Positions 8,367 through 26,377 of a DNA stretch of 40,000 bases are shown here, in pieces. A program made the position numbers and the translations under genes. The notes beneath the pieces are model-generated. The model made no database searches. It had not been told where the DNA came from and saw only the letters and a program-made list of their open reading frames with translations. Every line of letters begins with the position of its first letter. Position 1 is the stretch's first letter. Location of the stretch: assembly GCF_009363155.1 (NCBI RefSeq), contig NZ_CP045302.1, forward strand, positions 4,563,194 through 4,603,193, read 5' to 3'. The stretch comes from Azotobacter salinestris. GTDB lineage: Bacteria > Pseudomonadota > Gammaproteobacteria > Pseudomonadales > Pseudomonadaceae.

Positions 8367-8444
<78 letters not shown>

Positions 8445-8522: not shown

Positions 8523-9692
8523 TTATCCCTGCCTCCTTTTCAGGATCGTCAGCGCCGGAGCGCGACTGTCGGTTGCTGATACCTTGTTCGCCGCATCAAT
8601 CAGCTGGTCGAGTTCTGCCGCCGAATAGTGGCTGGTGATGCTTCCATTCTTGTGGCCCAATAGGGCCTTCCTGTCCTCCTCGGTTACGCCTGCCGCCCTA
8701 AGCCGTCTGCCAAACGTATGCTTTAGGTCGTGGATGCGTATCGAGGCGAATCCTGGGTGAGCCGGCGTCTTGTGGATCTCCTCCCACTTGGCAGCCGACC
8801 TAACCCTGGCCTTCCTCCAGGCGCTGTCGTTCATCCGGTGGACTGCAGTTGGCCCGAACTGGTCTGGATTTCCGTAGGGGAACACCAGTGATGGGTGTAG
8901 GCCGCGCTGCCCATCAATCACCCGCCTGGCTACGTCATTCAGAACGACAAGACGCTCGTCGCGGTTCTTAACGCCAGACTGCTCACGCCTCCCACCGAAT
9001 TCTGCCGGGATCAGGAAAACGCTGGTCCCGAGTTCTGGCACGGCGATTTCCCATTCCCACCTGAGCTTGCAAACCTCCTGCTCTCGGCACCCGGTGTTAA
9101 CCTTGTACAAGGCCATTCTCCGAAGGTGGTCGGGAAGCTCCGCGAACAGCAGGCTCTGTTCCTCCCACGACAGCGGGTACGGTTTTCGGCTGGCCCGCTT
9201 CTCATCCAGTTTGGCGATCATCGGCACTGTGTCGAGCCACGGTTTGCTGTTGTCGTCCCGCCACTTCCTAGCGCACAGGTTCAGGATCCTGATTACCCTC
9301 TCCAGCGCGATGTTCACCGTCCTGTTCGACGCTCCGCCTTGGAGCTTGTCCTTTATGTAGGGAGCCAAGGACCTGTCATCTATGCGGGACAGTGGTAGAT
9401 CGCCTATGTACGAGTCGAGCTGCTCCAGGTAGATCGCCGTCAGCCAGATGGAAGGCTGGTTCTGGAACTCGATCAGATAGCGGGTTGCGGCCTCCTGCCA
9501 CTGGATGACAGGGCGAACCCCGTACACTTTTTCCTGCCGCAACTGCTCCAGCCGATGGATCAGGTACTGCTCTGCTTCTTCCCGGTCACAAGTTCCAGTG
9601 CTTTCCTGAATCCGTTCTCCTTTGTACCTTTTGTCGATTTTCCAGATGCCGTTCGGCATTTTCTGGAGCCCTGAGATTGTTTTTCGCGCCAT
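8523..9692 (-). CDS. int: tyrosine-type phage integrase
   Basis: 389 aa. C-terminal catalytic signature ...IRIHDLKHTFGRRLRAAGV...LLGHKNGSITSHYS (R..HxxR..Y). Adjacent to the tRNA. Confidence 0.95.
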   Translation of the reverse strand: MARKTISGLQKMPNGIWKIDKRYKGERIQESTGTCDREEAEQYLIHRLEQLRQEKVYGVRPVIQWQEAATRYLIEFQNQPSIWLTAIYLEQLDSYIGDLPLSRIDDRSLAPYIKDKLQGGASNRTVNIALERVIRILNLCARKWRDDNSKPWLDTVPMIAKLDEKRASRKPYPLSWEEQSLLFAELPDHLRRMALYKVNTGCREQEVCKLRWEWEIAVPELGTSVFLIPAEFGGRREQSGVKNRDERLVVLNDVARRVIDGQRGLHPSLVFPYGNPDQFGPTAVHRMNDSAWRKARVRSAAKWEEIHKTPAHPGFASIRIHDLKHTFGRRLRAAGVTEEDRKALLGHKNGSITSHYSAAELDQLIDAANKVSATDSRAPALTILKRRQG

Positions 9693-14794: not shown

Positions 14795-14950
14795 AGCGAA
14801 GCTCCTTTGCTTTGGTGAGGAGTTCGCCGCCACCCATTGGTCGTTGGGCATTGGAGGCGAACCGCGCAGGGCGACCAAGACCGGGGCAAAGGAACCCGGC
14901 GAGCCCGAGAGCTCCCCTACGCGGCCCGCCATAAAGCGTTTCGCGGGCAC

Positions 14951-20003: not shown

Positions 20004-20297
20004 TTGAGCTGGTTCCGCCTTCTTCAGCTTCGCCAGGACTTTTCGGCGAACTCCCTTCGATTCGCGCATCGCAACCAGCATGCACTGGTCCTGGGTAAGC
20101 TCGATGGTCTCCGACTCTTTCCCGAACTTCAGGCTTACAAAAATTTTGTAAGCTTCGCCTTCCAACTCGTCCTTGATGCGGTCGACGAACACGTTGTTCC
20201 GCAGCTCAGATTCCCCGAACTCTTTGCGGGCTTCGTTGACGATCTCCAGTAGCTCGGTACTGTTCATGGTTGCAGGTGTTTCAACGATGCTGCTCAT
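19515..20297 (-). CDS. Rha-like phage regulatory protein fused to the shared antirepressor C-terminal domain (260 aa)
   Basis: N-terminus (LTQDQCMLVAMRESKGVRRKVL) resembles the Rha family. The C-terminal 160 aa are paralogous to 13311..14120. Confidence 0.8.
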   Translation of the reverse strand: MSSIVETPATMNSTELLEIVNEARKEFGESELRNNVFVDRIKDELEGEAYKIFVSLKFGKESETIELTQDQCMLVAMRESKGVRRKVLAKLKKAEPAQLKPPVSPPALADLSAALEVAARMLNVCESSKLQMLGAAFSRHGVDPVGLLPSYAVDAPAGHVTASSSLPAFSLTHLLKEHGIPMSAIKANKELAKAGILEIQQRPSTKSPDRAKNFWALTEHGLQYGKNVTSPNNPRETQPLFFAERFPQLLDLIEASETRH

Positions 20298-20644
20298 TGC
20301 CTTCCTCCAAGTTCGAGCCCAGCGGATCCGGGGATGCGTTCAACGATCTTCCAGGCCTCGCCAGGGTCGACGCGGGATGGCCCGACGTGGCGCAGCTTGG
20401 TGCCGTCGGGCAGTTCCAGGATGATTACGGGCCCTGCCAGCGTCTGGTCGCTGGTGTTGACGGCGGTCGCCACCGCCCAAGAATCGTGGGCGGTGTCCAT
20501 GATCTGCACGTTCCGCAGGGTTACGTCCGGCGCCGGCAGCTCGGCGCTTTGGGCCTCGTGGGTGGCCAGGGCGCCGGCGGCCAGGATAAGCAGGGTCGCG
20601 GTCGCGGCGACGCCTGCCGATTGCAGCATGTCGATCAGTTTCAT
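20294..20644 (-). CDS. secreted hypothetical protein (116 aa)
   Basis: Signal-peptide-like MKLIDMLQSAGVAATATLLILAAGALATHEAQS. ATGA overlap with the downstream gene. Weak RBS. Confidence 0.65.
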   Translation of the reverse strand: MKLIDMLQSAGVAATATLLILAAGALATHEAQSAELPAPDVTLRNVQIMDTAHDSWAVATAVNTSDQTLAGPVIILELPDGTKLRHVGPSRVDPGEAWKIVERIPGSAGLELGGRQ

Positions 20645-20683
20645 TGGGGGTCTCGTGGTTGCTGGGGTGGGTCGCGCGCGCAT

Positions 20684-21693
20684 GAGGAAGCCGCCTCGGG
20701 CGAGGTGGCTTTCTTATGAGTACGGAAGAGAGAGAAGGGGCGGCCGGTTACGCCGGCCAGGCGGTCACTCTGTCGACGCCTGCGTGACTACAGACTGATT
20801 CCGGTGGTTTGACTTCCGTGTCTTGCAGATTACTCAAACCGGCTGCGCGCCTTTCCGGGAACGAGATACCGGCGTGGCCACTTCGGAGGTGGCCGGCTGA
20901 CGCGGACGACATACCGATCTGCCGACGGCTTAGACTGACATGAGCATCTCTTGCAACTTCTCCCCCGGATTAGCTGGGGAGTGCTCAGTAAGCTAAGCCC
21001 TTGGATAGGGCCTCGCTATACCCTGCGGCGGGAAGGTCTTTCCCATAAGAGTAGGGTTGAGAAATGGCCGTCTTTCCGGCCTGTCCGTCAGCGCATCGCC
21101 GCGAAGCAATGAGGGCGCTAGCAATCGCTGACTGCTGCTGATGTTTCGGTCTCAGTCAGCGCAACCGGCCTGCTGTGTGACCGGCTACGGTCGACCGGCA
21201 ACAGGCAACCGGAGATTCGTGCCCGGTGCTTGGCACCCGCCCGGCGCGGGTTAAACGCTGACTGCTGGAGTCAGTTGCCCTCAGGGCAGATCAGAGGGGG
21301 ATGCTGGGGAAGCATCGGGGAGTGACCTGCGCTGGACCTAACGCCAACCTGGGTAACTCGACACTCTCGCCGGAGGCGAGCGTCTCATGCGTAGCTATCT
21401 CGCATGTCAGGTCACTCTCCGATGCCACCCGCTGGATGGATCGGCCCGTCTTTCCGGGGTCATCGCCTAACGCGGTCGACTACGGCCGTCTTTCCGGCTG
21501 TCAGATGCGAGCGGCATCGGTGGAGTGGTCTGGCCGGCGCTGATCTCCGGCTTCTTTCAAGGGCAGACTCTTTGGCTGGCTATCCTGGTTGCGAGTCTTA
21601 GCAATGCCGCTCGCGGATACGTCACAAATATCTGGCCACGCAGGAGCGCATCAGCCTGCGCATTCAGACCACTCCCCTGATGCCGCCCTGTCG
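20684..21693 (-). ncRNA. candidate large structured non-coding RNA, or another non-coding element, inside the early-left operon
   Basis: No minus-strand ORF of 60 codons or more in about 1 kb of roughly 60% GC DNA. At least ten perfect 5-8 bp stem-loops. CCGTCTTTCCGG occurs 3 times and CGCTGACTGCTG twice. Strand is inferred only from operon direction. Confidence 0.35.
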
Positions 21694-21954
21694 CTACTTG
21701 GTGCGGATGCCGGCGGCCTCGATGGCGGCGCGGAAGGCATGGTGCAGGCCGCTCAGCGCATAGAAGGCCTCCATGTCTTCCTCTTCGGCGCCTTCAAGCT
21801 CGGGCTGAGGGCATGGTGGCAGCTCCACCACCATCGCGGCGCGGGAGGCTTGCCAGCCGGCCCACATGGCACGCTTGATGAAGTCCGGCTCGCCGTCGTG
21901 TTTGCTGTCGATCCACCACGCCTCGAACTCCGCCCGTACCTTGTCTTGTTCCAT
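21694..21954 (-). CDS. hypothetical phage protein (86 aa)
   Basis: ATG 21954 with RBS AGGAGAG. Begins MEQDKVRAEFEAWW... Confidence 0.7.
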   Translation of the reverse strand: MEQDKVRAEFEAWWIDSKHDGEPDFIKRAMWAGWQASRAAMVVELPPCPQPELEGAEEEDMEAFYALSGLHHAFRAAIEAAGIRTK

Positions 21955-21997
21955 GTCTCTCTCCTGTGGGCGCCCCGTTGCCAGGGCGCGGTCGTGT

Positions 21998-22186
21998 TCA
22001 AGCTGCCTCGCATCCATTCCGCAATCCGGCCTGGTAGGCCTTCTTCATCTCGTTCAGGATCTGCAGGCAGTACTGGCCGTTCTCCTTGCGAAAGGTGCGG
22101 TAGCCCAGGGCGCGCATCTCGCGCTCGAAGTCCAGGGTTTCCGGGTCGGTGGGGCGATGGCTGTTGGTGATTGTGATAGAGGGCAT
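21998..22186 (-). CDS. hypothetical phage protein (62 aa)
   Basis: ATG 22186 with RBS AAGGAAA. Confidence 0.65.
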   Translation of the reverse strand: MPSITITNSHRPTDPETLDFEREMRALGYRTFRKENGQYCLQILNEMKKAYQAGLRNGCEAA

Positions 22187-22252
22187 GGGGGGTTTCCTTC
22201 TTCGGTTGGTTTTCCCGGATGCCACTGTCGCCAATGGCATCGAGGAAATCGC

Positions 22253-22800: not shown

Positions 22801-22842
22801 AAAATACAAAACGTATTTCTAAAGGTCAATACGAAACGTATT
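22801..22842 (-). promoter_or_regulatory. PL promoter with two OL operators
   Basis: Minus-sense TTGACC, 17 nt, TATTTT. Two palindromes AATAC-N5-GTATT (22803..22817 and 22828..22842) overlap the -10 and -35. The same palindrome occurs at OR (26400..26414). Confidence 0.6.
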
Positions 22843-22903: not shown

Positions 22904-23149
22904 TCAGTCAGAGGTAGGGGCTGTCCAGGTCAGATGTACGGCGCCGTCCTCGCGCTTGGCCATCGTTACTGATTCCTCGTCGGCGAGATCCTCAAGTAGC
23001 TGTTCCCAGGCGTCCAGGGGTTCCTCTGGCAGCCGGCTGACCAGGACACATCGGCTGGCCTGAGCCCTAGGACTGAGAATCTGCTTCTTGATTCGCAGGG
23101 CGAGGAGTTCATAGGGGGTTGGTGTGCGGGGTAGTGCTTTACGTGCCAT
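22904..23149 (-). CDS. small SOS-box-controlled protein, paralog 1 (81 aa)
   Basis: RBS AAGGAGA. Paralogous to 23321..23572 (YEL...RI.K.I.SP.AQ....V...RLP.EP.D.W...LE..A..E...............V.LTWT.P). LexA box lies 24 nt upstream. Confidence 0.75.
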   Translation of the reverse strand: MARKALPRTPTPYELLALRIKKQILSPRAQASRCVLVSRLPEEPLDAWEQLLEDLADEESVTMAKREDGAVHLTWTAPTSD

Positions 23150-23172: not shown

Positions 23173-23188
23173 CTGTATATCCATACAG
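23173..23188. promoter_or_regulatory. LexA SOS box
   Basis: CTGTATATCCATACAG is a perfect CTGT-N8-ACAG / CTGTAT-N4-ATACAG. It overlaps a candidate -10 (TACTGT), with TTGATC 17 nt upstream on the minus strand. Confidence 0.8.
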
Positions 23189-23320
23189 TAGTAATAACGA
23201 AGCGCTGGATCAAGGAGAAAAGCTATGGCGATTTGATGGTATGTAAACTTTTCGAGCAGGTTCTGAGGGCGGGAGAGACGAAAGCCCCGCGCTGGGCAGG
23301 CTTGAGGGGAGGGGGCGGTG

Positions 23321-23572
23321 CTACTCGGCCGGAACGGTCCAGGTAAGCCGGACGCCATCTCCGCCGACGTGCTGGACCTTGACGTTCTCGGCTTCCGCAA
23401 CCTCTTCGAGGAAGCGCGCCCAATCAGCCGCTGGCTCATCTGGCAGGCGGTGGACTGTCACGTCCCTGGCCTGCTGCGCCTTTGGCGAGTTGATGATCTT
23501 CTGGATGCGGGCGCCCATCAGCTCATAGCTGGACGGCTGGCGGACGGCGGTTTTCTTGGCTGGCTTGGCCAT
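23321..23572 (-). CDS. small SOS-box-controlled protein, paralog 2 (83 aa)
   Basis: Paralog of 22904..23149. LexA box lies 16 nt upstream of the ATG. Confidence 0.75.
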   Translation of the reverse strand: MAKPAKKTAVRQPSSYELMGARIQKIINSPKAQQARDVTVHRLPDEPAADWARFLEEVAEAENVKVQHVGGDGVRLTWTVPAE

Positions 23573-23587
23573 GCAGCTTACTCATTG

Positions 23588-23603
23588 CTGTATTTGTATA
23601 CAG
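23588..23603. promoter_or_regulatory. LexA SOS box
   Basis: CTGTATTTGTATACAG is a perfect CTGTAT-N4-ATACAG. It is fused to the candidate -10 TATACT on the minus strand. Confidence 0.8.
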
Positions 23604-23748
23604 TATAAGGGGTGCCAGGGGGAGAGGTGGAGTAGCTGCGGACGGCCGAAGGGCGTGAACCAGGTAGAGCTTTGAGCGCGTCGCTATGGCGCGGCTAAAG
23701 GCAGCTGCTACCTTTGGTTAATCGATTCTGCCAAGGAGGGTGACGACG

Positions 23749-24043: not shown

Positions 24044-24502
24044 TCAAAGTGATTTCCTGCAAATATTGATTATTATGGTGCTTATGGTCGCAACCTGAAT
24101 TACGCTGTTTGTTGCAAGCGAGAGTGCGGACCGCATAAATATCTCTGCGGAAGCTGATGCTAGAGTAAGTAGCGAGGCTCCAAATGTTAGCGCCAATGTA
24201 ATTATGCAGTAAAAGTAAATAATGAAGAAAATATCTAGGTATTTGTTATTTTTGTATTTTTTGAATGTCGTTGATTGTGAAAAGTTCAAAAGGATAGCGA
24301 TTACTGCAGCCAAGAACCCAAGCATTGTGAATGCGTAGGTTGCGAGTATTACGGCAACATTTGGCCTTTGTGCGAATAGGCTGACTGAGTTCTCAGGGGC
24401 TGAGCTTATAACGATTTTGTAAATCAGCAGCAAGATTGGCCCAGGTATGGACATCAGAAAAACGAAGAATACGGCTAAAGTCCACTTTGTTAGTTTGTCC
24501 AT
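24044..24502 (-). CDS. rexB: RexB-like four-helix membrane protein (152 aa)
   Basis: Four hydrophobic segments. AT-rich codon usage. Immediately downstream of the RexA-like gene in the cI operon position. From memory, size, topology and local similarity resemble lambda RexB (ILATYAFTMLGFLAAVIAIL vs LSSYAGTMIAILIAALTFL). Confidence 0.6.
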   Translation of the reverse strand: MDKLTKWTLAVFFVFLMSIPGPILLLIYKIVISSAPENSVSLFAQRPNVAVILATYAFTMLGFLAAVIAILLNFSQSTTFKKYKNNKYLDIFFIIYFYCIITLALTFGASLLTLASASAEIFMRSALSLATNSVIQVATISTIIINICRKSL

Positions 24503-25343
24503 TTTCTGTGAAGGCCTTTAGCTGTTCCTGTAGTTGGTTGTTTTCTCTAATTTTTTCCTCGATTATTCCGGGTATATCTTTTTCGTCACGAGATCCAAGG
24601 TCATCAGAAATCACTCCTTTCCCTGCTACGTAAATATCTAGCATAGCAGAAGATGCATCATTTTTTGCTTTGATCATAAACTTTTCAAGGCCATCGCTTG
24701 ATGTGGCCTCAACAACCTTTTCAATTAATGGCTTAATGCTGCGCATTCTTCTTGGCTTCAAAATAATCTCTATGGATTCCAGCTCTTCTGTGTCAGCTTC
24801 GCCAGTAAATACATTGAGAAAATGCTTGGCGAGAGTGTTTTTTTGTGTCACCTCGATGGTTGTTCTTCCTATGTATTCCATCTTGACGGCTTGTTCTTTG
24901 GTTGCCTGGTAAATCAATGGCTTAATGCAAAAGCTCCAGCTGCCATTTTCAGTATAGTTAAGGAGTTCATTTATTAGGTTTGTAAATGCATCGAATTTTG
25001 GGGAGAGTGACGTTGATGAAAACCCGAAGTAATATTCTTTGAGTATGATGTAAGAGGCAAAGCCAATTTTTTCGTCTTGCCCAAGTATTTTATTTATTTC
25101 GCTGATTGATAGGTTTGTGGTATTGATTTTTTTGAACTTCTCACTGTCACGCGTCATGATTAGCACGCAGACATTTCCTAGAAGCCTCTGTAGGTAGATG
25201 TGCTCGCCGTTGTGTCTAAAGCTGCCTTTGAATTGAGGGCTGTCAAATTCTGCAAATGAAGACAAAAATCCTGATAAGTCTATTAAGTGAGACTCGTTAG
25301 AGATTTTGTGTTGCAAGTAATATCCAAAATAGCTAATCTTCAT
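24393..25343 (-). CDS. rexA: RexA-like protein (316 aa)
   Basis: AT-rich ORF with RBS AAAGG. Co-linear motif matches to lambda RexA as I remember it: IDLSGFLSS/INLSVFLNS, KIGFASY/SLGFPSF, IKPL..(11)..YIGRTTIEV/IEPL..(11)..FIGRTTVKV, IEIILKPRRMRSIK/LDIVIKPKFKRDIK. The 3' end overlaps rexB-like by 110 nt. Confidence 0.65.
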   Translation of the reverse strand: MKISYFGYYLQHKISNESHLIDLSGFLSSFAEFDSPQFKGSFRHNGEHIYLQRLLGNVCVLIMTRDSEKFKKINTTNLSISEINKILGQDEKIGFASYIILKEYYFGFSSTSLSPKFDAFTNLINELLNYTENGSWSFCIKPLIYQATKEQAVKMEYIGRTTIEVTQKNTLAKHFLNVFTGEADTEELESIEIILKPRRMRSIKPLIEKVVEATSSDGLEKFMIKAKNDASSAMLDIYVAGKGVISDDLGSRDEKDIPGIIEEKIRENNQLQEQLKAFTENGQTNKVDFSRILRFSDVHTWANLAADLQNRYKLSP

Positions 25344-25681: not shown

Positions 25682-26377
25682 TCAGAGCACGCCTTTTGGC
25701 GCCTTCATGTCGATAACTCGACCAATCACGTCCCAGTTGTCGTCCATCTCGACCTGCTTGAATTCCTTGTTCAGCGGGACCAGGTACTCGCGCCCGCCAT
25801 CGTAGATGTACTGCTTGAACGTCGTTTCGCCGTCGCGGTGCTTGGCGACGTAAAACTTGCCGCTGACCAGGTCGAATCCTTCCGGACGCACCAGAATCCG
25901 CGTTCCTTCGGGGAAGCTGGGAGAGCCAGGCGCGGTCATGGATGGGCCCTTGACGACCAGCCAGTAGCCGTCCTGCCCGGCGTTTTCTGTCGACGGCAGC
26001 CACTCTTCCGGTGCCTGACGGCTGAAGTTCTCCGGCGATTCTGCGCGCTGGCCGGCGATGACCCAACTGATCACCGGGTAGTCGCGCAGGCTGCGGGATG
26101 GCTGCAGCGCTAGCTCAACATTCTGGTGGCGCTGAGGGGGCTGCTGTATCGATAGCGCCTCAATCCCGAGTGCACTGAGCATTGCGTTGATGTCAGCCAG
26201 TCCAGGCTCACGGCGGCCATTCAACCAATGCGCGATTGCGCCTTGGGTTTTCCCAATACGTTCGGCCAGTTGGGCTTGGGTTACGCGCTGCTGCGCCATA
26301 GCGCTTCGCACGGCTTTGATCCATTCATCCATGGGCGAAATGCTACAGCCCGTATTAATTTGCGCAACGCACGGCAT
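25682..26377 (-). CDS. cI: lambda cI-like prophage repressor (HTH-XRE plus S24 LexA-like autopeptidase)
   Basis: HTH is QRVTQAQLAERIGKTQGAIAHWLNGRREP. The C-terminal domain WLVVKGPSMTAPGSPSFPEGTRILVRPEG...GETTFKQYIYDGGREYLVPLN is close to the lambda cI CTD (Ser in GPSM, Lys in TFKQ). An Ala-Gly is present (VIAGQ). Alternative start at ATG 26332. Confidence 0.92.
   Translation of the reverse strand: MPCVAQINTGCSISPMDEWIKAVRSAMAQQRVTQAQLAERIGKTQGAIAHWLNGRREPGLADINAMLSALGIEALSIQQPPQRHQNVELALQPSRSLRDYPVISWVIAGQRAESPENFSRQAPEEWLPSTENAGQDGYWLVVKGPSMTAPGSPSFPEGTRILVRPEGFDLVSGKFYVAKHRDGETTFKQYIYDGGREYLVPLNKEFKQVEMDDNWDVIGRVIDMKAPKGVL

Follow-up and report, generated by a model that had tools for sequence, protein, structure and literature searches.

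The window analysed, the whole 40,000-nt stretch of Azotobacter salinestris DNA, carries a Pseudomonas-type lambdoid prophage in which a stretch of about 1 kb (20684-21693, GC content ~63%) is noncoding. An earlier note had claimed this segment to be free of credible open reading frames between two flanking minus-strand coding sequences, and this was borne out both by the lengths of the frames present (the longest being 54, 45 and 43 aa on the minus strand and 80 aa on the plus strand) and by searches with Pfam and PHROGs, which returned no match at E ≤ 0.1 for any of the eight frames of at least 43 aa. The position claimed for the segment, downstream of a boxA, was likewise confirmed, and a PL-like promoter was located upstream of that boxA, from which the segment would be transcribed as part of the early-left operon. 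Positions 22240-21998 code for a candidate N-like protein that has an RRRK motif. Two close relatives, L035 and L036, were found by using the downstream coding sequence as the query. The features recognised, in the order of minus-strand reading, were as follows.

22801-22829, minus strand: PL-like sigma-70 promoter (TTGACC-17-TATTTT) with operator-like palindromes AATACGTTTCGTATT on its flanks; putative start of an early-left operon that would include the segment
22728-22740, minus strand: boxA CGCTCTTTAACAA, downstream of the PL-like promoter and the sole perfect copy in the window
21694-21954, minus strand: upstream flanking coding sequence (86 aa; PHROG 343, a family of unknown function)
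21507-21690, minus strand: B1 module, with closing helix arms 21686-21665 and 21532-21511
21481-21506, minus strand: 22-nt element, copy 3, CUGACAGCCGGAAAGACGGCC (27.1 bits, E = 9e-7)
21445-21458, minus strand: element copy 2, the hairpin alone without its CUGACA flank, CCCGGAAAGACGGG (17.3 bits, E = 1.4e-3)
21305-21432, minus strand: B2 module, with closing helix 21430-21408/21329-21307
21096-21304, minus strand: lineage-specific segment with short hairpins at 21288-21276, 21274-21258 and 21161-21126
21063-21089, minus strand: 22-nt element, copy 1, CUGACGGACAGGCCGGAAAGACGGCCA (36.3 bits, E = 8.5e-10), the best in the window
20932-21062, minus strand: spacer (C segment), 92-93% identical to L035/L036 and including GGGAAAGACC
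20741-20931, minus strand: A unit of ~190 nt (nhmmer E = 1.9e-52)
20685-20714, unstranded: GC-rich hairpin that separates the A unit from the next gene, kept in L035
20294-20644, minus strand: downstream flanking coding sequence (116 aa, signal-peptide-like N-terminus, no family)

Read on the plus strand, with its tail TTTCTTATG, the hairpin at 20685-20714 resembled a terminator; on the minus strand it was weak. Minimum free energy (MFE) folding of the whole region gave z-scores of −4.9 (minus strand) and −4.8 (plus strand), compared with −0.1 to −1.5 for four flanking coding sequences that served as controls; the equivalent values for individual modules were −4.2 (B1), −5.3 (B2), −1.6 (21096-21304) and only −1.2 (A unit). 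The short hairpins previously described were all visible in the sequence, as were the two copies of CGCTGACTGCTG (21126 and 21256) and the three of the 12-nt unit CCGTCTTTCCGG (21068, 21446 and 21486), the latter being a hairpin that displays a GAAAGA loop in a minus-sense transcript and that turned out, beyond what had been claimed for it, to be the core of a 22-nt element spread through the phages and genomes of most bacterial phyla. By contrast, neither of two supposed degenerate copies was a significant match to this element: 20847-20859 is part of the A unit, and 21030-21044 holds just the 8-mer GGAAAGAC (7.2 bits, E = 3). A repeat finder identified two further long-range inverted repeats, 21307-21329/21408-21430 (23 nt, 87%) and 21511-21532/21665-21686 (22 nt, 91%), and TRF found no tandem repeat in the window.

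The segment is a mosaic of separate modules in operon sense, i.e. on the minus strand, rather than a single large RNA, and contains one A unit, two B units, private segments and three copies of the 22-nt element. These modules have homologues, covariation and thermodynamic stability; the conserved parts are the separate modules only, the number and order of which vary among close relatives. The large structured RNA that had been proposed by analogy with GOLLD and ROOL stands in part: the region is noncoding and structured, with RNA-like modules that show compensatory changes in relatives, but the modules are separate and variable, one relative containing seven tandem A units over 2 kb. As with GOLLD and ROOL, which are noncoding, highly structured and prophage-encoded, often adjoin or enclose tRNA-like elements and have no known protein partner, the setting is a prophage; however, those RNAs each adopt one fold of 600-800 nt, whereas here a variable array of 125-190-nt modules occurs in Pseudomonas-type prophages. 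In keeping with the earlier statement that the segment could not be assigned to a familiar RNA family, it belongs to no Rfam family, and no cmscan match to GOLLD (RF01998) or ROOL (RF03087) was obtained for the window at the gathering threshold, for 20400-22000 at E ≤ 10, or for L035 and L156. BLAST against GenBank phages and plasmids gave nothing for the region beyond a 45-nt edge match. No homologue was found for 21096-21304, which contains two GUCAGCG(U/A)UU words similar to the 5' part of A units.

The A unit was characterised from 23 copies, obtained from seven viral contigs plus the window. A long-range helix, GCAGAU/AUCUGC, accompanies several covarying hairpins, and the unit closes with a terminal hairpin (GGCCGG-CGUAA-CCGGCC) and then a tail rich in C/U. 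RNAalifold predicted 30 pairs, 14 of them with double changes; in the long-range helix AU was recorded 12 times and GC seven times, and one hairpin exhibited 10-11 compensated cells per pair. In two copies (L157g and L164g) the 22-nt element takes the place of the terminal hairpin. While nhmmer detected no second A unit in the window, relatives contain up to seven in tandem at ~300-nt spacing with the same gene downstream. All four promoter-like matches in L035 lie on the sense strand directly before two A units; one A unit of L035 is preceded by a Fur-box-like promoter. Tandem RNA units upstream of a gene recall both PrrF1/PrrF2, given also that Fur-box-like promoter as at prrF, and ToxI; however, PrrF has no sequence similarity to A units, and ToxI consists of 34-36-nt repeats followed by a terminator and a ToxN-family gene rather than ~190-nt units at ~300-nt spacing. 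Other features of a type III antitoxin were equally lacking, TRF having found no tandem repeat, the downstream gene coding for the 116-aa signal-peptide protein, and no ToxN-like gene being present.

The B units share a conserved closing helix of 18-21 bp with many compensatory changes around variable interiors that are mutually unrelated. An alignment of 15 sequences comprised 21 pairs, 12 with double changes, and 91% of cells were paired, a result equalled by none of 500 shuffles. The proximal 9 bp of the arms are conserved in sequence, and the distal half carries compensatory changes and, at three positions, sense-strand U-G wobbles. B2 is paralogous to B1, with compensatory changes and the conserved A.C mismatch of the family; because this sense-strand mismatch would be a G-U pair on the opposite strand, the B helix alone leaves the strand unfixed. 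Two inner hairpins of B1, GCGCAGGCUGAUGCGC and GCCGGAGAUCAGCGCCGGC, are common to Pseudomonas relatives, the rest of its interior being variable. Some B interiors (L069, L094, L110 and L261) include hairpins resembling a tRNA T-arm, such as GGGGUUCGAAUCCCC, which neither B1 nor B2 of the window possesses. These units are reminiscent of Y RNA (YrlA), whose 5' and 3' ends pair into a long stem around a tRNA-like domain with a T-arm. The B stem is, however, unrelated to the Ro-binding helix, no Rsr/Ro gene lies nearby, and the L069 unit gave no Rfam match to Y RNA at E ≤ 10, just a weak 17-bit tRNA-Sec-like match. ARAGORN detected no tRNA or tmRNA in 12 B-unit loci.

The 22-nt element has the form CUGACA-[G(N)CCG-GAAAGA-CGG(N')C]-A and is a single hairpin of 5-6 bp. 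When its covariance model was run with filters off against the whole 40 kb, just three significant matches were returned, all on the minus strand and inside the segment. The element is an RNA-level hairpin with a covarying closing pair, N-N' being C-G in 32 cells, G-U in 6, G-C in 5, U-A in 3, A-U in 2, U-G in 2 and mismatched in 2 (52 cells, among the matches listed); none of 500 shuffles gave pair counts as good. Among the matches listed, conservation is limited to 22-23 nt across 49 unrelated flank contexts, and in 83 of 97 contexts the MFE fold includes the hairpin. Other roles considered for it were set aside. There was no pairing from flank to flank beyond controls, and no conservation outside the 22-23 nt, that would make it the core of a larger fold or ribozyme; CTGACA as the −35 box of a sigma-70 promoter was rejected because tRNAs begin 0-10 nt after the hairpin; and the UGA of CUGACAG showed no enrichment over other frames as a stop of upstream open reading frames. 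In some Bacteroidota loci this UGA does end mini-ORFs of just five codons. A hammerhead seen by eye next to the element in L151 was dropped because Rfam gave no confirmation.

Exact-motif scans of viral and genome sequences yielded at least 120 viral and at least 120 genome loci with exact copies. Because an exact motif was required and only the matches listed were considered, the resultant distribution and flank statistics represent biased samples, and a few genome matches inside open reading frames may be due to chance, since ~9 are expected in 596 Gb. Within these bounds, the element has a pan-phylum distribution, its hosts among the matches listed including Proteobacteria, Bacteroidota, Clostridia, Actinobacteria, Myxococcota, Planctomycetota and CPR bacteria, and it is positioned at unit boundaries. 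It lies 3-10 nt before same-strand tRNA genes in L038, L068, L135, L142/L209, L148 and L193 and ~92 nt before a capsid gene, and it immediately precedes a B module in at least 11 Pseudomonas genomes, while in two Myxococcota genomes a tRNA-Tyr gene is followed by ~10 nt, the element and an EF-Tu gene. Among the matches listed it precedes Shine-Dalgarno-equipped starts by 17-37 nt in 13 contexts, flanking open reading frames are co-oriented with it at ~2:1, and most loci have a single copy, compared with three in the window and four in L028; in gut phages, 5-6 tandem hairpins occupy the 5' UTR before a structural (scaffold-like) gene. Clustering of 2,392 neighbouring open reading frames indicated no linked partner protein and no linked transposase, integrase or Rep; the commonest neighbour within 5 kb was a cI-like repressor (62 of 249 loci, 25%, among the matches listed). 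Rfam 15 contained nothing at the elements in the window, L035, L156, L069, L151 or 18 genome loci, and literature searched by sequence returned nothing but primers and a single synthetic sequence of random origin. Among RNAs described in the literature, Pas sRNAs and put RNA proved unrelated.

Our best guess, advanced tentatively, is that the 1-kb segment consists of noncoding RNA modules arrayed like cassettes, in which boundary "punctuation" hairpins delimit and stabilise units cut from an antiterminated early-left transcript. The minus-strand array would be read within the transcript from PL (22829-22801), with boxA-dependent antitermination (22740-22728) allowing RNA polymerase to cross the untranslated kilobase. 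A free-standing hairpin with an invariant loop and flank suggests sequence-specific recognition, most likely by a factor conserved across bacteria. Marking the borders between functional RNA units (tRNAs, structured RNAs and open reading frames), such hairpins may set where units are released from the long transcript, the newly made ends then being protected by a hairpin, whereupon the A and B RNAs could accumulate during induction as discrete stable RNAs serving as regulators or decoys; the binding factor, the cleavage or stabilisation at the hairpin and the functions of the A and B RNAs are all presumptive. Against this reading stand the arrays of 5-6 hairpins before the gut-phage gene, which are hard to explain as cleavage sites, the position of the element after PL and before a terminator in enterobacterial lambdoids, which fits antitermination better, and the neighbour clustering, which found no partner protein and had the cI-like repressor as its commonest member.

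A wider proposal, possible if rather doubtful, is that CUGACA-hairpin(GAAAGA) is an undescribed pan-bacterial RNA signal read by universally conserved machinery, for example the ribosome, RNase P, or RNA polymerase together with Nus factors or Rho. By means of this signal, phages of most phyla and certain host operons (tRNA-tuf in Myxococcota) would punctuate or protect their polycistronic transcripts or promote read-through of them. The array of the Pseudomonas prophage would then hold a cargo of new structured RNAs (the A and B families, some of them tRNA-like) that are deployed through the signal.

An unlikely rival, though likelier than those that follow, is that the hairpin, like nut or put, is a processive antitermination or anti-Rho signal that forms on nascent RNA and modifies RNA polymerase directly or via Nus-type host factors, so that neither terminators nor long stretches without translation (arrays of tRNAs or ncRNAs, and 5' UTRs) would stop the polymerase; the A and B modules would be cargo in need of this protection. 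Like nut and put, the element is a short RNA on lambdoid early transcripts. In Klebsiella-type lambdoids (BUCT709 and the L072/L074/L182 types) its first copy lies ~55 nt after the PL-like promoter and just downstream of the cI-like gene, which is the nutL/putL position; after it come an RprA-like sRNA that has a strong terminator and then more copies; Xenorhabdus, Morganella and Klebsiella loci have a terminator-like hairpin ~20 nt after it. Terminator-like sites peak 0-49 nt downstream of the element (9 of 97 contexts, versus 0-4 in nine other 50-nt bins), a cI-like repressor is the commonest neighbour, the GAAAGA loop resembles the GAAAA/GAAGA loops of lambda boxB, and a universal distribution suits an equally universal partner, for example RNA polymerase, Nus factors or Rho. 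By way of contrast, an intrinsic terminator is nearby in just ~9% of contexts, and a canonical boxA is already present at the nutL of the window, ~1.2 kb upstream of the first copy. In lambda nut, boxA (CGCUCUUA-like) is a few nt upstream of boxB, whereas here the 5' flank is CUGACA; moreover, boxB has a GNRA-like pentaloop bound by the arginine-rich motif of N protein, as opposed to a 6-nt GAAAGA loop. N-type peptides are lineage-specific, whereas the present element is identical across phyla and found also before tRNA, capsid and EF-Tu genes; copies 0-10 nt before a tRNA, or 5-6 in tandem, are unusual for nut-like sites. Known RNA antiterminators are also larger, HK022 put spanning ~70 nt and forming two stem-loops shortly after PL/PR (PMC9378689), compared with a single hairpin of 22-23 conserved nt.

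Improbable, too, is a sponge or decoy role, in which GGAAAGAC-displaying hairpins on A and B scaffolds would titrate an RNA-binding protein or nuclease in the manner of CsrB/RsmZ or phage tRNA decoys, the targets proposed being a regulator of translation, an RNase with a defence role or an enzyme whose usual substrate is a conserved cellular RNA. Consistent with this are the several copies at some loci (three in the window, four in L028, 5-6 in gut-phage 5' UTRs), the T-arm-like hairpins in some B interiors, and BUCT709, in which the 8-mer GGAAAGAC doubles as the ribosome-binding region of three genes (GAGGAAAGACCAATG) and the motif occurs at least seven times in 880 nt. The 9-mer CGGAAAGAC is, in addition, identical to a confirmed stretch of E. 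coli 23S rRNA, A2058-A2062 in the established numbering; as a post-hoc 9-mer, its chance probability against ~4.5 kb of rRNA is ~0.07. Set against these points, most loci among the matches listed have one copy, ARAGORN and Rfam call no tRNA or Y RNA in B units, and no candidate protein is linked. CsrB/RsmZ similarly display a GGA-containing motif resembling ribosome-binding sites on several short hairpins, but have many hairpins with the ANGGA loop of the CsrA consensus, whereas the present motif, an invariant G-GAAAGA-C usually found in one copy (three in the window), falls outside that consensus; neither CsrA nor Hfq is known from several of the phyla that carry the element.

More improbable again is that the features act as DNA, the repeats being binding sites (iterons or operators) or borders of recombination or mobile cassettes, and the B "helices" the terminal inverted repeats that bound small mobile elements; a mosaic of variable copy number would follow from this. 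The differing number and order of modules among close relatives, the cassette-like conservation of B arms around unrelated interiors, the identity of the element amid unrelated flanks, as expected of a mobile or recombinogenic border, and the iteron-like arrays of gut phages would all suit it. Nevertheless, this alternative, raised in the earlier note as a clustered DNA-binding site, is disfavoured because G-U and U-G occur at the covarying closing pair on the sense strand only (8 of 52 cells), and recognition of double-stranded DNA would not select such pairs. Furthermore, the distal half of the B helix has compensatory changes and sense-strand U-G rather than a conserved protein-binding sequence; the orientation of the element is biased toward that of flanking genes and tRNAs, and linked genes for a transposase, integrase or Rep were lacking. 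A MITE would be expected to have arms conserved in sequence, near-identical dispersed copies and target-site duplications; the B arms are conserved in sequence over their proximal 9 bp, around unrelated interiors. That the segment is a decayed gene or neutral junk, with hairpins arising from composition, is scarcely credible and largely refuted: a GC content of ~63% allows short hairpins to form easily, and 21096-21304 has no detectable homologue and a modest z-score, but the ORF products lack Pfam or PHROGs matches, z-scores lie far beyond those of the coding controls, covariation is present in A, B and hairpin, the element is conserved across phyla, and a pseudogene is refuted because L035/L036 have 2 kb of RNA units at this position and no gene.

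Very few short RNA signals are known to be common to bacterial phyla, the familiar ones being boxA, the Shine-Dalgarno sequence and intrinsic terminators. The present element recurs letter-for-letter in Pseudomonas, Bacteroidota, Clostridia, Actinobacteria and CPR bacteria, where it borders tRNAs, structured RNAs and genes with high expression. A related noncoding stretch, the L182 region of Escherichia whittamii, has two copies of the element and finds matches in 449 of 5,426 complete E. coli genomes, which opens the system to direct tests. With the A and B modules, temperate phages of Proteobacteria gain at least two new families of structured RNA; GOLLD, ROOL and other large phage RNAs are not known to be prominent in this group. 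If a conserved factor does read the element, it would represent a new piece of gene-expression grammar exploited by phages, and a portable part for synthetic operons.

The ORF-poor stretch of about 1 kb at 20684-21693 is established as noncoding: it is an array of private segments and members of at least two new structured-RNA families, interspersed with an RNA hairpin element whose phylogenetic spread is extraordinary. ORF calls, which were mechanical and are noisy in GC-rich DNA, bore out the earlier note's observation that no minus-strand ORF of at least 60 codons is present there, and no ORF of the stretch had a Pfam or PHROGs match. The 12-nt repeat, the second repeat and the short hairpins described in that note were all found, the repeats at the positions it gave, as were two extra long inverted repeats (21307-21329/21408-21430 and 21511-21532/21665-21686). 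The stretch folded 4.9 SD better than its dinucleotide shuffles, as against -0.1 to -1.5 for four flanking CDS controls.

The surrounding DNA is a lambdoid prophage of a Pseudomonas-type genome (GC ~60-65%), the relevant features of which are as follows.

8368-8444: tRNA-Pro, marking the left end of the prophage with the next feature
8523-9692, minus: integrase-size ORF, a candidate by size
25682-26377, minus: cI-like gene, immunity region
Divergent to the cI-like gene: cro-like gene, immunity region
24044-25343, minus: RexA/RexB-like exclusion genes, in a low-GC island (39-42%) downstream of the cI-like gene
23321-23572 and 22904-23149, minus: two DUF1654 genes
~22890-22865: strong intrinsic terminator after the DUF1654 genes
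22829-22801, minus: PL-like promoter between operator-like palindromes
22740-22728, minus: perfect boxA, CGCTCTTTAACAA
22495-22253, 22240-21998, 21954-21694, the array, 20644-20294 and the anti-repressor-like gene 20297-19515, minus: early-left operon, in order

We infer that the array is transcribed within the boxA-antiterminated PL transcript. The second gene past PL and boxA (21998-22240, minus) codes for an 80-aa protein with an Arg-rich N-terminal stretch, GKTNRRRKPP, and is a candidate N-like antiterminator; no match was obtained in PHROG or Pfam. LexA/SOS-box-like CTGT-N8-ACAG palindromes, TACTGTATACAAATACAG and TACTGTATGGATATACAG, precede the two DUF1654 genes at 23590-23610 and 23180-23200 (minus), and the pair lies between rexB and PL as a putatively SOS-controlled insert. 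A C4 antisense RNA (14850-14936, minus; Rfam RF01695, 65 bits), a P1/P7-type immunity RNA within a lambdoid Pseudomonas prophage, lies upstream of an antirepressor-like ORF. On the plus strand, an antisense RNA of ~225 nt over the start of CDS 20294-20644 could be specified by a promoter-like site within that CDS (20457-20484) and a terminator-like hairpin at 20685-20714, GCCGCCTCGGGCGAGGTGGC with TTTCTT after it; the hairpin is conserved in the relative L035.

Relatives sought through the downstream protein (20294-20644) comprised two IMG/VR prophages, L035 and L036 (84-86% identity), in which ~2 kb devoid of credible ORFs precedes the homologous gene and contains seven tandem copies of a ~190-nt module, the A unit, at a spacing of ~300 nt. 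Exactly one A unit is present in the window (20931-20741; nhmmer E = 1.9e-52), and a pattern search revealed eight further viral contigs carrying it. RNAalifold gave a consensus of 30 pairs from 23 aligned copies, with compensatory double changes at 14. Within it lie the long-range helix GCAGAU/AUCUGC (AU:12, GC:7), the terminal hairpin GGCCGG-CGUAA-CCGGCC and another hairpin in which each pair is compensated in 10-11 sequences. Covariation here, and below for B and the hairpin element, was counted over partly related sequences. Promoter-like sites in L035 were confined to the sense strand, directly ahead of two A units. Immediately ahead of one A unit, at L035 2800-2840, a sigma-70-like promoter (TTGATA-16-TATGAT) shares bases with a Fur-box-like sequence, GATAATAATTATCATT, which suggests possible iron-regulated expression of that unit.

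The two long inverted repeats of the window proved to be the paralogous closing helices of B1 (21690-21507) and B2 (21432-21305), with folding z-scores of -4.2 and -5.3 respectively. The helix, GCAUCGGAGUGUGAUCUG ... CAGAUCACACCCCGAUGC, is present in many Pseudomonas prophages and genomes, enclosing mutually unrelated interiors of 65-179 nt; B1 has two inner hairpins in common with its relatives. Among 15 non-identical examples, compensatory changes occurred at 12 of 21 pairs and 91% of cells were paired, a level equalled by none of 500 shuffles. The proximal 9 bp are conserved in sequence with an A.C mismatch, equivalent to G-U on the opposite strand, whereas three other positions have U-G wobbles, in favour of the sense strand, so that the strand of B is not settled by B alone. 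Six B interiors (L069, L094, L110, L191, L195 and L261) bear T-arm-like hairpins (GGGGUUCGAAUCCCC, GCGGUUCGAUUCCGC, GGCGGUUCAACUCCGCC) beside the 3' strand of the closing helix, an architecture like that of tRNA or Y RNA; ARAGORN and Rfam called no tRNA, tmRNA or Y RNA in them. A third conserved module, absent from the window, lies downstream of B units in L039, L079, L110 and L126; in it a C/U-rich tract, CCCUUCCCUUCACUUC, leads into a long hairpin, GACCGCAUUAGACAGGUGCCAG...CUGGCAUCUUCCUAAUGCGGUC.

Thirty loci, otherwise dissimilar to the window, were obtained by searching viral contigs for the 12-nt repeat in two copies; their comparison lengthened the motif to CCGTCTTTCCGG(N)CTGTCAG, or, on the sense strand of neighbouring genes, 5'-CUGACA-[G(N)CCG-GAAAGA-CGG(N')C]-A. 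Exact-pattern scans for one copy, biased toward this canonical motif, detected no fewer than 120 loci in viruses and likewise at least 120 in genomes representing species; with ~9 chance matches expected in the whole genome collection, a few matches inside ORFs may be fortuitous. The hosts include Pseudomonas, Stenotrophomonas, Xenorhabdus, Serratia, Morganella, Escherichia, Paraburkholderia and Sphingomonas, many Bacteroidota, Clostridia, Actinobacteria, Myxococcota, Planctomycetota and Verrucomicrobia, plus Ignavibacteria, Spirochaetes, Parcubacteria and Gastranaerophilales. Conservation was confined to 22-23 nt (49 unrelated flank contexts), within which the optional closing pair covaries (C-G 32, G-U 6, G-C 5, U-A 3, A-U 2, U-G 2, mismatch 2) to an extent reached by 0 of 500 shuffles. 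Wobbles of both polarities on one strand imply a single-stranded hairpin on the sense strand. This hairpin is free-standing: the MFE fold contains it in 83 contexts out of 97, and flank-to-flank pairing did not exceed that of controls. A covariance model located three copies in the 40 kb, all minus and all inside the array (21089-21063, 21506-21481 and 21458-21445), and none elsewhere.

The element lies 3-10 nt upstream of same-strand tRNA genes in six independent loci, directly upstream of B modules in at least 11 Pseudomonas genomes, often 0-6 nt past a stop codon, ~92 nt upstream of a major capsid gene and, as a tandem array of 5-6 copies, 16-18 nt upstream of a gut-phage gene whose product looks scaffolding-protein-like, with no Pfam match. 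SD-preceded starts follow at a distance of 17-37 nt in 13 of 97 contexts. On large chromosomal contigs of four Myxococcota (L219, L233, L248, L281) it lies between a tRNA and an EF-Tu gene, the order in L248 and L281 being tRNA-Tyr, ~10 nt, element, then EF-Tu 17-40 nt on; the element is thus not confined to phages. Flanking ORFs were co-oriented ~2:1, and a search for protein partners among neighbours at 249 loci revealed no universal one, the commonest being a cI-like repressor (62 loci). In five Bacteroidota loci (L184, L188, L196, L235, L241) a 5-codon mini-ORF (ATG-N12-TGA, e.g. M-A-H-K-D-stop), preceded by ~150 nt of apparently structured RNA, ends at the UGA within CUGACAG; a U-run follows the hairpin in L184 and L218.

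In Klebsiella-type lambdoids such as phage BUCT709 the element occurs ~55 nt past a PL-like promoter, just downstream of a cI-like gene, inside an 880-nt noncoding stretch with an RprA-like sRNA, a terminator and many copies of GGAAAGAC, three of which act as ribosome-binding regions. The sRNA (OM816835, 4311-4430; 50 bits against an Rfam gathering score of 70, E = 5e-5) has a strong terminator, and three genes near it have a common start region, GAGGAAAGACCAATG. A related noncoding stretch, L182, matches 449 of 5,426 complete E. coli genomes, only 4 matches covering at least 80% of the query; no annotation underlay the matches listed.

We infer that a conserved factor recognises the hairpin. 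An antitermination or anti-Rho signal would accord with the post-PL position and downstream terminator in enterobacterial phages, but an intrinsic terminator is nearby in only 9 of 97 contexts. A decoy or sponge would be consistent with the tandem arrays, with GGAAAGAC serving also as a ribosome-binding region and with a 9-nt identity between the element core, CGGAAAGAC, and an E. coli 23S rRNA stretch, ACGGAAAGACC (NZ_AP018488.1 232337-232393), at A2058-A2062 in the peptidyl-transferase/exit-tunnel loop; statistically the identity is weak and may be coincidental (~7% chance). DNA-level models, including the binding-site cluster offered in the earlier note as its alternative, are disfavoured by the strand-specific wobble pairs. 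Junk and a pseudogene remnant are both refuted as readings, the latter by L035 and L036, which have tandem A units, not a gene, at the same position.

Rfam 15 gave no match at the array, at the gathering threshold or at E<=10, nor for the hairpin, A or B, and a sequence search of the accessible literature found nothing. In its manner of working the locus resembles phage structured RNAs and sRNA arrays already known; membership in the GOLLD, ROOL, nut, put, CsrB-type, Y RNA and ToxI families was rejected on the features tested. The earlier proposal of a large structured RNA holds as regards structure and noncoding character, a modular array taking the place of one GOLLD/ROOL-like RNA. There is a substantial chance, though less than an even one, that the 22-nt element represents a universal RNA signal of a categorically new kind. 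As the best single model, it would act as punctuation, setting the boundaries of RNA units and protecting them, a reading that fits its place beside tRNAs, RNA modules and ORFs and its substitution for the A-unit terminal hairpin in two copies (L157g, L164g).
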